From assembly GCF_058153355.1 (NCBI RefSeq), contig NZ_CM177019.1: 64,000 nucleotides of DNA; one strand, given 5' to 3'. Positions 6,001-9,000 of the stretch are shown one piece after another. The first letter of the stretch is position 1. Each line of letters opens with the position of its first letter. A program made the position numbers.

Positions 6001-9000
6001 TACCAGCGGAAAGCCCGCCATTACTGGCCTTGTGCAAAAAAGTACGCAGAACATCCACCGGATACGAAACCGATACGTGGAATGCGTACCGCTCCCCCTA
6101 CTAACCCATTTCAACCCGGTAACCAGCAAGCAAACATTACGGTAAGCCAACAGACAAGCCAAACATTAAACCTAAGGCTACCCCTTCGAAGGTGCTTTGA
6201 AGGGGGGATTTAATACAGCATCTTTTTTGTGTGGCTGGTGGTGGGGATTAGCAAATTTTTGATCCTTACTACAGCATTTTTGAGCATCGTTTTTTCATCG
6301 ATTGTATGAGATATTTGGCATAGATAGACGGTAATGAACCGTGGTGAACGTTGATGAACGATGATAAGGAGATGAAACCAATGGCAGTTACTACCCTGAA
6401 CAGTGTGGCGGATTATCTGCTGTGCTTCGCTCAGGAGCACGGCGACGTAATGACGCCGCTTAAACTGCAAAAGATGGTTTTTTATGCTGATGCCTGGTAT
6501 ATGGCCTTAAATGAGGGACAGGAACTGATACCTGACCAGTTTGAGGCTTGGGTACATGGCCCGGTAGCCCGCGAACTGTATAGCCGTTTTGCTGATTACA
6601 AATGGCGACCAATTGATGAAGAAATACAGTGCCCTGAACTATCCGATGAAATTAAAAAACACCTGGATGAAATCTACCAGGTGTTTGGGGGGTACTCAGC
6701 TTATGAACTGGAACAACTGACCCATCAGGAAAAACCCTGGCTGTTAGCGCGTGAAGGTGTGCCGGCAGACGCGCCATGTCGGAATGTTATAGATAAAAAG
6801 GTAACGGCAGAGTTTTATCGTTCTATGGCATCGTGAGTATGGGAAAAGGAAGTATCAGGGCCGGGAAACTGGCCCAAAAGGGTAGCCGTATTACCGCAGG
6901 CGAAAATCATCAGGCTGTAACGACCATTAATTTTTCCTTTCGCTATATCGACGCAGATCATGAAAAATTCAGGTTTGCAGCCGAGGATTCTGCTTATTTT
7001 TGCAAGGTGCTTGACCGTCTGAAAGCTCTTTCCTCACTGACGGCTAATGAGTTTATGGCTGGGCGCAGTGCCGCCCTGAAATCTCATCCTATCGACTGGC
7101 GACACACATCTGAGCCGGAAGGCTTCACACACCTGAACGAGCAGTTTCAGAGCTATACGCCATATCAATTTGCTGTATCACGCAATGAGCATGGTCGGGT
7201 GCATGGTTTTTTTATCGGTAACGTGTTCCATGTTGTATGGCTGGATCCGCATCACCGGCTTTACCCTGGTAAATAATTTTCATGCTGGTGGTGTAATCAT
7301 CCACCAGCTTGATCACGGATAACAGGGGATGTGTAATCCCCAAGCGAGTGATAAATGTGTATAGAAATGTGTATAGAATCTATTTTAGAACTCGAGAATG
7401 TGCCTTTATTACTGGTCTTGTTGCTTGTTGTATTGTTCCCTTCGCCGCTCCAATTTATCTTCACCTCATCAATCTGCCATTTTTGCTGTATCTGATTTTC
7501 TATATTATCTTAATTCAATTGCTTCAGACTTTTCGCAATCGCTGTAACACTTCCCCATTTTTTTGTAAATAAAAGCGTTTACGCAATGCAATCCATTTGT
7601 AACAACCCAGGTAAAATACCTTATTTTCAAGTTGTTAAATAAGTGGTTATCTACGCTTTTAACAAACGATTGATGGAATCTTTGTAAGCGGCTCGCCAGA
7701 ACCGTATTGATATTTACTGAGAGCTCAGATCAACTTTCCAGGGCAACAGATCGCGTACCCGGTTTGCCGGCCAGTCCTGGATATGTTCAATGACGTAACG
7801 CAGCCACTTTTCTGGCTCCACATTGTTCAGACGGCATGTGCCGATCAGCGAGTACAACACCGCAGCATGTTCACCACCGCTGTCAGAACCCGCGAAGAGC
7901 CAGTTTTTCCGGCCTACGGCCACTCCCCGTAAGGCGTTCTCTGCGATGTTGTTGTCGATTTCCACCCAGCCATTACTGCAGTACACGTTCAGTGCATCCC
8001 ACTGTTTCAGCAGGTATGCGAACGCTTTTGCCGTGTCCGAGTGACGCGACAGTGTTTTCATCTGTTGCTGTATCCAGTCATACAGTGACTGCATCAGTGG
8101 CGCGGCTCTGGCTTTTCTTGCCGCCAGACGCTGTTCTGCTGAACAGCCCCGGACCTCTGCCTCGATGGCATACAGTTCACCGATACGCTGCAGGGCTTCC
8201 GTGGTGATGTCGGTGGGCACTCTTGCATGCACATCGTGGATTTTTCTCCGGGCATGAGCCATACATGCGGCTTCCGTTATTCTGCCGGATTCGTACAACG
8301 CCCGGTAACCACCGTAAGCATCGGCCTGAAGCACTCCGCTGTAACCGGCCAGATGATTCTGTGGATGGATACCTTTCCGGTCCGGGCTGTACGCGAACCA
8401 GACCGCCGGAGGCATTTCCGAACCGGCGTTACGGTCATCACGAACGTAGACCCACAGCCGGGCAGTCCTTGTTTTACCGCTGCCCGGCTCCTGGACCGGA
8501 ACGGGGATATCATCGGCATGGACTTTACCGGGCATCAGCACATACTGGCGCAGGATGTCATACAGCGGTTCCAGCAGTTCAGCAACAGCACCTGTCCAGC
8601 GCCCCAGTGTGGCACGGCTCAGCTCCACGCCCTGACGACGGTATATTTCTGACTGGCGGTATAACGGCAGATGGTCTGCATATTTTCCAGCGACAACATG
8701 GGCCAGAAGCCCCGCTCCGGCATAACTGCGTGCAATGGGTTTTGAAGGCACCGGAGCCTGCACGATATGGTCGCACCGGCAACAGGCCAGTTTCGGACGT
8801 TGTGTTTCGATAACCTTAAAGGCGCTGCTGATAAGCTCCAGTTGCTCTGACACATCACATCCCAGAGAACTGAGTTCGCCACCACAGGCCGGGCAGCATT
8901 CCTCTTCCGGACGGATGACCCGGGTTTCACGGGGAAGTGAGGCAGGTAACGGTTTACGGGCTGAAGACTGGCGCAGGGGAGATGGCAGTACCGGGTCATA

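Follow-up and report, generated by a model that had tools for sequence, protein, structure and literature searches.

A Cluster T1 PanAT Gene Pair in the Variable End Slot of an Escherichia coli Satellite: a Candidate Latent RelE-Fold Toxin and Its Panacea Partner

The Locus

The window considered here, a stretch of 64,000 nucleotides (nt) from contig NZ_CM177019.1 (NCBI RefSeq assembly GCF_058153355.1), carries two adjacent genes close to the end of a satellite element, panA and panT, which encode a standalone Panacea (DUF4065) protein and a putative toxin of the PanT cluster T1, respectively. Both lie in a cassette within the variable cargo slot of the satellite, which was delimited by comparison with the cq9 island of E. 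coli. The features of the locus are listed below by window coordinates, strand, and identity (aa, amino acid residues).

6181–6205, plus strand: GC-rich hairpin (CCCCTTCGAAG/CTTTGAAGGGG), an inverted repeat with 11-nt arms that are 91 % complementary
6210–7292, plus strand: PanAT cassette in the variable cargo slot of the satellite, 1083 bp, as compared to the cq9 island
6366–6371, plus strand: Shine–Dalgarno sequence AAGGAG for panA, as read from the sequence, 9 nt before the ATG at 6381
6381–6836, plus strand: panA, standalone Panacea (DUF4065) antitoxin-like protein, 151 aa (Pfam PF13274, phrog_1281, RefSeq relative)
6839–7276, plus strand: panT (cluster T1 family), putative toxin with a predicted RelE/ParE fold, 145 aa
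7254–7270, plus strand: weak hairpin resembling a terminator, with a T-rich tail behind it, where panT ends (consensus scan, pattern match only)
7436–7453, plus strand: tRNA-Gly 3′-end remnant (attR core) at the satellite boundary, 18 nt (11-mer and 7-mer matches)

The panA frame is open from a TTG at 6351, with a further possible start at ATG 6372, and ends at the TGA at 6834–6836. The ATG at 6381 is regarded as the best start, because AAGGAG is located 9 nt upstream and because the same start is found in a 97 % identical RefSeq locus of E. coli. For panT, initiation at GTG 6833 would give a protein of 147 aa and a GTGA overlap (6833–6836) with the panA stop, while ATG 6839, 2 nt past this stop, yields the 145-aa form; the latter is the likelier start, since most homologues comprise 145 aa with an N-terminus reading MGK, MAK, or MSK. 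An earlier note on this DNA had deduced an operon from the GTGA overlap and was right about both the overlap and the tight coupling, but probably not about the start codon of panT. Either start (gap of +2 or −4 nt) implies that translation of panA and panT is likely coupled. A match of the Rfam model c-di-GMP-I-GGC across the gene junction (6803–6899) was dismissed as chance (E 2.4; 15.7 bits vs. a gathering score of 59).

PanA, a Standalone Panacea Protein

The assignment of the first protein to the Panacea/DUF4065 type, already made in the earlier note, was borne out by profile searches. PanA matches the Pfam model SocA_Panacea (PF13274) with E 5.6e-20 over model positions 1–112 of 113 as well as phrog_1281 (E 1.6e-37), contains the TPLKLQKMVFYADAWYMALNEG...FEAWVHGPV block, and is labeled “Panacea domain-containing protein” by RefSeq in the 97 % identical E. 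coli locus. As the protein bears no added N- or C-terminal domain and, with 62.9 bits, scores under the 190-bit cut-off of the NCBIfam SocA_antitoxin equivalog, it is best described as a standalone Panacea protein rather than as SocA itself. Such standalone proteins neutralize directly and may also serve as sensors (PMC10440598), and PanA antitoxins were reported to neutralize diverse toxins via direct binding (PMC8832971). A further PanA homologue (43 % identical) is encoded by Cylindrospermopsis phage Cr-LKS4 (1816–3383), where it is situated between two annotated clustered regularly interspaced short palindromic repeats (CRISPR) arrays with no T1 partner annotated beside it.

A Conserved Two-Gene Unit

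A scan at one genome per species, for which an alignment of 13 relatives was used, returned 156 PanT relatives, and 80 loci were kept. These loci are mostly cyanobacterial, the other taxa including Enterobacteriaceae, Pseudomonas, Desulfohalobiaceae, Nitrospinae, Saprospiraceae, and a Fraserbacteria genome. In all 80 of them, a PanA-like open reading frame (ORF) is located directly upstream of panT on the same strand, mostly with gaps of −26 to +12 nt. The coupling of PanA and PanT is far above chance and, given this complete record, the pair can be considered an obligate two-gene unit. A Panacea gene directly upstream, usually overlapping, was likewise found in Nostoc, Pseudomonas, and four unrelated metagenomic contigs, the PanT homologues of which are just 35–40 % identical. 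The neighborhood comparison thus sustains the view that the genes form a conserved operon of the toxin–antitoxin (TA) type.

Panacea pairs of this kind have been surveyed systematically: the neighbors of DUF4065 genes were scanned in 20,209 genomes, and 88 clusters of predicted toxins (PanT) were defined, a PanAT pair being called at a gap of no more than 100 nt and conservation in at least two species (Kurata et al. 2022, PMC8832971). The present pair has a gap of +2 or −4 nt and occurs in several phyla.

The PanT Family and Cluster T1

For PanT, Pfam yielded nothing up to E ≤10, and weak matches were obtained to the NCBIfam “MAG6450 family” (E 2e-6, below cut-off) and phrog_8366 (E 2.6e-7). 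Nevertheless, its family is large: when 1.84 billion representatives were searched exhaustively with HMMER, 745 clusters (formed at 50 % identity) were retrieved at E ≤0.001, of which 396 reached E ≤1e-10, and almost all members have a length of about 145 aa. All named members are “hypothetical” or “uncharacterized”. The exact window protein is encoded on at least 560 public E. coli contigs, and the subfamily was not found by tblastn among 50,697 phage genomes. Conservation was assessed in an alignment of 57 diverse members, with residues numbered according to the 147-aa form. R122, G125, F132, W136, D138, and H141 are invariant, and F34, S35, F36, F46, R62, H85, F98, Q112, G121, L143 as well as H124 and Y144 are near-invariant, which is reflected in two signature motifs: FSF[KR]Y, located close to the N-terminus, and the C-terminal GRVHGF...F[YH]VVWLDPxHxLY. 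The window PanT is intact and keeps every invariant residue of the family.

The T1 accessions were reached by a search with a cyanobacterial member of the family. The window PanT is 49 % identical to WP_007358048.1 from Kamptonema (BLASTP E 2e-40) and 50 % identical to WP_073596579.1 from Phormidium ambiguum (BLASTP E 2e-44), both of which are listed as pT1/T1 PanT with an adjacent PanA in the accessible part of Dataset S1 (PMC8832971). The same part of Dataset S1 holds a T1 entry for Nitrolancea hollandica Lb (PMC8832971), a 138-aa protein of which (I4EFF3) is among the AlphaFold-DB matches to PanT. Additionally, the family is remotely homologous to the T1 protein of Salmonella phage Emek (hhalign probability 97.2 %, E 2.9e-11). 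Cluster T6, which was considered on account of its Proteus entries, was ruled out as being MazF-like. Hence, the kind of gene pair found here was already catalogued in 2022 as PanT cluster T1 and is not a new type of system, and the description of the module as undescribed in the earlier note has to be withdrawn. Judging from at least 395 occurrences of the pT1 label in the accessible part of Dataset S1 (PMC8832971), T1 appears to be the largest PanT cluster and the commonest predicted partner of Panacea; its representatives are labeled “mRNase” in Table S1 of the Supporting Information (PMC8832971).

Filamentous cyanobacteria show a strong expansion of the T1 family; in Kamptonema formosum, Microcoleus asticus, and Hormoscilla, for example, each genome holds several PanA/T1 pairs. 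The Emek pair (phage positions 2495–3368) recurs at 95–100 % identity and at least 80 % coverage in 48 complete E. coli genomes; at the one locus inspected, in E. coli STEC346, it adjoins Arc-family and antirepressor genes of a prophage. In PADLOC-DB 2.0, the match of PanT to NsnC spans PanT residues 100–143 and the C-terminal 42 positions of NsnC, a candidate defense protein that may end in a related RelE-like module.

Predicted Fold and Active Site

The AlphaFold2 model of PanT, built from the 57-sequence alignment, has a mean predicted local distance difference test (pLDDT) score of 91.7 and a predicted template modeling (pTM) score of 0.78. The first 30 or so residues are modeled as a basic, unstructured, and less confident tail, which is followed by a domain of the order beta-alpha-alpha-(long loop)-beta-beta-beta. 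According to this model, PanT has an alpha/beta fold of the RelE type and thus of the RelE/ParE superfamily. Foldseek matches to the PDB are weak (best E 0.13, probability 0.80), and the relationship holds at the level of the fold only, since PanT could not be linked to RelE, YoeB, or ParE by any comparison of sequences or profiles. Other AFDB50 matches combine the PanT fold with an extra region in proteins of 200–256 aa from Firmicutes and Bacteroidetes (e.g., Paenibacillus larvae, Bacteroides, and Chryseobacterium), and one match is annotated as SMI1/KNR4 family.

In the model, strand beta3 bears R122 and H124, D138 is found where beta4 ends, and the C-terminal tail contains H141 and Y144. 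The catalytic residues of RelE are R61, R81, and Y87, those of YoeB R65, H83, and Y84. The conserved polar residues of PanT seem to match the catalytic sites of RelE, YoeB, and YafQ, an equivalence that we infer from topology rather than from a computed superposition. With invariant polar residues at the places of the catalytic Arg, His, and Tyr in these RNases, PanT would most likely be a translation-dependent mRNA endonuclease. RelE/ParE-fold proteins may, however, also be gyrase poisons instead of RNases. That PanT is such a ParE-like poison, or another non-RNase member of the fold, nevertheless appears improbable, as the RNase members RelE, HigB, YafQ, and YoeB outscore ParE in the fold comparisons and as the invariant Arg/His/Asp/His/Tyr set presumably resembles RNase active sites more closely than that of ParE.

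A HEPN-like protein, which had been hinted at on the basis of an R-x6-H spacing, can be discarded: the arginine of this spacing, R117, falls in a variable column, the segment forms a loop and a beta-strand of an alpha/beta fold instead of being helical, and no HEPN structure is among the fold matches.

The complex of both proteins was modeled from a paired alignment, for which PanA and PanT from 30 loci were joined by a Gly-Ser linker. The resulting AlphaFold2 model of 324 residues reached a pTM of 0.79, and pLDDT values below 50 were confined to residues 156–191, which comprise the linker and the beginning of the PanT tail. Two domains of equal size that do not pack against each other are expected to give a much lower pTM, and the value obtained is consistent with a specific PanA–PanT complex. 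As the pTM of a fused chain, it is, however, an indirect sign, which supports complex formation but does not decide it.

Satellite Setting and Mobility of the Cassette

Window positions 1–6209 code for the C-terminus of a P4-family primase, a single-stranded DNA-binding protein, a ProQ/FinO protein, a PerC-type activator, a protease-like DUF2213 protein, and a small-terminase-like helix-turn-helix (HTH) protein, and are collinear with the cq9 island of E. coli at about 91 % identity. This island starts with a tRNA-Gly, a tyrosine integrase, an HTH regulator, an antirepressor, and an Icd-like protein. Because these genes are collinear with an island that begins at tRNA-Gly and integrase, the host element is identified as a satellite of the phage-inducible chromosomal island (PICI) type; the features of such satellites that are known from the genes are an integrase at a tRNA and a regulator (both via cq9), a primase, packaging-related genes, and an attR remnant. 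The homology to cq9 stops in block 6140–6209, the final homologous block ahead of the cassette, and restarts at 7293. In between, the cassette (6210–7292) stands in for an unrelated stretch of 242 bp in the cq9 island that bears no genes. The GC-rich hairpin at 6181–6205 lies inside the final block and closes the conserved satellite backbone, the variable slot starting right after it.

The sequence at 7436–7453 (TTCCCTTCGCCGCTCCAA) corresponds to the 3′ end of E. coli tRNA-Gly (TTCCCTTCGCCCGCTCCAA) minus one C and is surrounded by an island-end region that is 96 % identical to the end of the cq9 island. This remnant was detected solely by k-mer matching: a 25-nt tRNA-Gly pattern with up to three mismatches missed it because of the 1-nt deletion, and neither ARAGORN nor Rfam found a tRNA near the pair. 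With the remnant thus located and the cq9 island situated at tRNA-Gly, it holds true, as the earlier note had it, that the pair is the last cargo before a tRNA-Gly remnant. The pair also resides, as had been suggested, in an attachment site (att)-proximal variable slot of the kind in which satellites carry defense genes, as PICIs hold immune systems at their 5′ or 3′ ends (PMC11364771).

The cassette is evidently mobile. Window segment 6408–7327 recurs at 96 % identity (11983–12902 of the locus compared) as the last gene pair of a different satellite at the yejO site of E. coli strain “numer 3”, whereas the backbone of that satellite is just 77–83 % identical. This discrepancy, together with a left breakpoint 27 nt inside panA, points to a recent recombinational exchange of the module. 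Furthermore, the cassette is found at 78 % identity in a third satellite, also at the yejO site, and at 76 % identity in the lysis region of a lambdoid prophage; it is carried by just three out of 5,426 complete E. coli genomes. A Pseudomonas copy of the pair adjoins a type I restriction–modification system, and another copy AbiEi-like and insertion sequence (IS) genes.

Such a distribution raises the question of whether the pair might be an addiction module that acts by post-segregational killing, with stabilization of the satellite or prophage as its sole role and without any part in phage defense. An operon built like those of type II TA systems, in which the antitoxin gene leads and is translationally coupled to its partner, would suit this explanation, as would the fact that the pair is always found on mobile elements in E. 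coli. The copies in cyanobacteria and Pseudomonas, however, are chromosomal, often several per genome, and not obviously located on mobile elements, while the toxicity of PanT is putative and the tested T1 members were not toxic in E. coli (see below), which renders addiction alone rather unlikely.

Just past attR, an IS66-family element occupies 7684–10152, with ORFs on the minus strand at 7714–9285, 9305–9652, and 9649–10077; the cq9 alignments on its two sides share 8 bp, suggestive of a target-site duplication. The subsequent region (10162–12018) comprises a GH15 glycoside hydrolase gene and a hydrophobic ORF of 59 aa (11839–12018), the cq9 equivalent of which is annotated as GhoT/OrtT-family toxin, so that this ORF would possibly be a second small toxin near the satellite end. 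An InvF-like AraC regulator (12364–13113; NCBIfam E 1.9e-54, below cut-off) heads a long run of ORFs on the same strand, which may constitute an ETT2-like type III secretion island located at glyU.

Proposed Mechanism and Significance

With a probability of roughly 0.6, we regard the pair as a PanAT module of type II that comprises a latent RNase of the RelE fold and serves as exchangeable satellite or prophage cargo for defense or addiction. This interpretation builds on the domain identities, the fold, the strict gene coupling, the mobility of the cassette, and its position in the element; complex formation, RNase chemistry, trigger, and phenotype may be envisaged as follows. PanA, being translated first, would bind PanT directly and hold it inactive. 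PanT, with its RelE/ParE-type fold behind a basic tail of about 30 residues, would likely act as translation-dependent mRNA endonuclease, so that its release from PanA would result in the shutdown of translation. Release could be triggered by a phage or helper cue or by loss of the element, and the outcome would be abortive-infection defense or post-segregational stabilization of the element. The module itself moves as a self-contained cassette, which is found both in the att-proximal cargo slots of PICI-type satellites and at moron sites of prophages.

Several observations weigh against this interpretation. A consensus scan for sigma-70 promoter-like sites found none. PanT did not match any toxin in phmmer searches of the PDB or in profile searches, and hhalign probabilities against RelE, YoeB, and an annotated RelE/ParE toxin did not exceed 2.7 %; beta-secretase matches in the PDB (E about 0.1) were dismissed as chance. 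The description of the partner as unclassifiable in the earlier note is not supported, given the membership of PanT in cluster T1 and its RelE/ParE-like predicted fold. In PADLOC-DB 2.0, PanA has no match and PanT matches NsnC only (E 0.0096), so that neither protein is recognized as a defense component. Above all, over-expression in E. coli of two T1 members, WP_077635758.1 from E. coli MOD1 and YP_006560566.1 from Salmonella phage Emek, proved “not toxic” (PMC8832971, SI Table S1). The Emek protein, however, has Ala, Val, and Phe in place of R122, H124, and H141, and its non-toxicity may not transfer to the window subfamily, as it is devoid of the invariant residues.

These results could conceivably also mean that there is no toxin system at all and that the T1 protein is a harmless factor which binds RNA or ribosomes, such as a regulator or a counter-defense factor of phages and satellites. 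Besides the lack of toxicity in both members tested, no function is annotated anywhere in the PanT family. Such a role is nonetheless hard to reconcile with the strict pairing with an antitoxin domain (80/80 loci), the toxin-type fold with its invariant catalytic-type residues, and the failure to find the subfamily in the phage genomes searched, and we consider it quite doubtful.

A more serious, albeit still tentative alternative is that PanT alone is inert and turns into an active nuclease of the RelE fold only once PanA senses a phage or helper-phage cue, perhaps without dissociation of the complex, and thus provides the satellite with immunity against competing phages. T1 PanT would then possibly be a trigger-gated latent nuclease, with the cassette being traded between the end slots of satellites and prophages as an immunity gene. 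On the other hand, the pair is not listed by PADLOC, an effect of T1 on phages is predicted only, and the non-toxic Emek protein, which lacks the invariant residues, may say little about the window subfamily. If true, PanAT T1 would represent a trigger-gated effector rather than a classical TA pair.

To our knowledge, Panacea is the most promiscuous antitoxin domain, and T1 is apparently its commonest partner, yet no T1 member has a demonstrated activity. Being intact, endowed with all invariant residues, present in the standard test host E. coli, and located in an immune-gene slot, the window pair is a convenient candidate for addressing both the function of T1 and the question of whether Panacea proteins act as sensors.

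Comparison with Known Systems

Among the systems to which the pair may be compared, the ribosome-dependent mRNA endonucleases RelE, HigB, YafQ, and YoeB appear to share the beta-alpha-alpha-beta-beta-beta fold with PanT, along with conserved Arg, His, and Tyr residues on beta3 and in the C-terminal tail, and their genes can be found, as that of PanT, downstream of the antitoxin gene. In contrast to these, PanT shows no detectable sequence or profile similarity to them, exceeds them in length by about 50 residues, has a basic tail at its N-terminus and a long alpha2–beta2 loop, and is paired with a Panacea antitoxin and not with RelB, HigA, DinJ, or YefM. The SocAB system of Caulobacter is a type VI TA system, of which SocA is the founding Panacea protein. 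PanA bears the same SocA/Panacea domain, but scores 62.9 bits against the 190-bit cut-off of the SocA equivalog; moreover, PanT is unrelated to SocB, to which no similarity appeared in any search, and there is no sign here of a ClpXP adaptor mechanism. As in the case of defense cargo at PICI ends and in P4-like hotspots, the cassette is variable, adjoins the att site, and has been swapped between satellite backbones, while it differs from such cargo in that it is not recognized by PADLOC and has no known anti-phage phenotype. The PanAT pairs of cluster T1 (PMC8832971), finally, share with the window pair an upstream, seemingly translationally coupled standalone Panacea antitoxin, a partner that is 49–50 % identical in two T1 proteins, and the same taxonomic spread across cyanobacteria, Enterobacterales, and Nitrolancea. 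What sets the window copy apart is its location in the end slot of a PICI-type satellite and a subfamily that retains the invariant GRVHG...WLDPxHxLY motif, which is missing from the tested T1 member of phage Emek.

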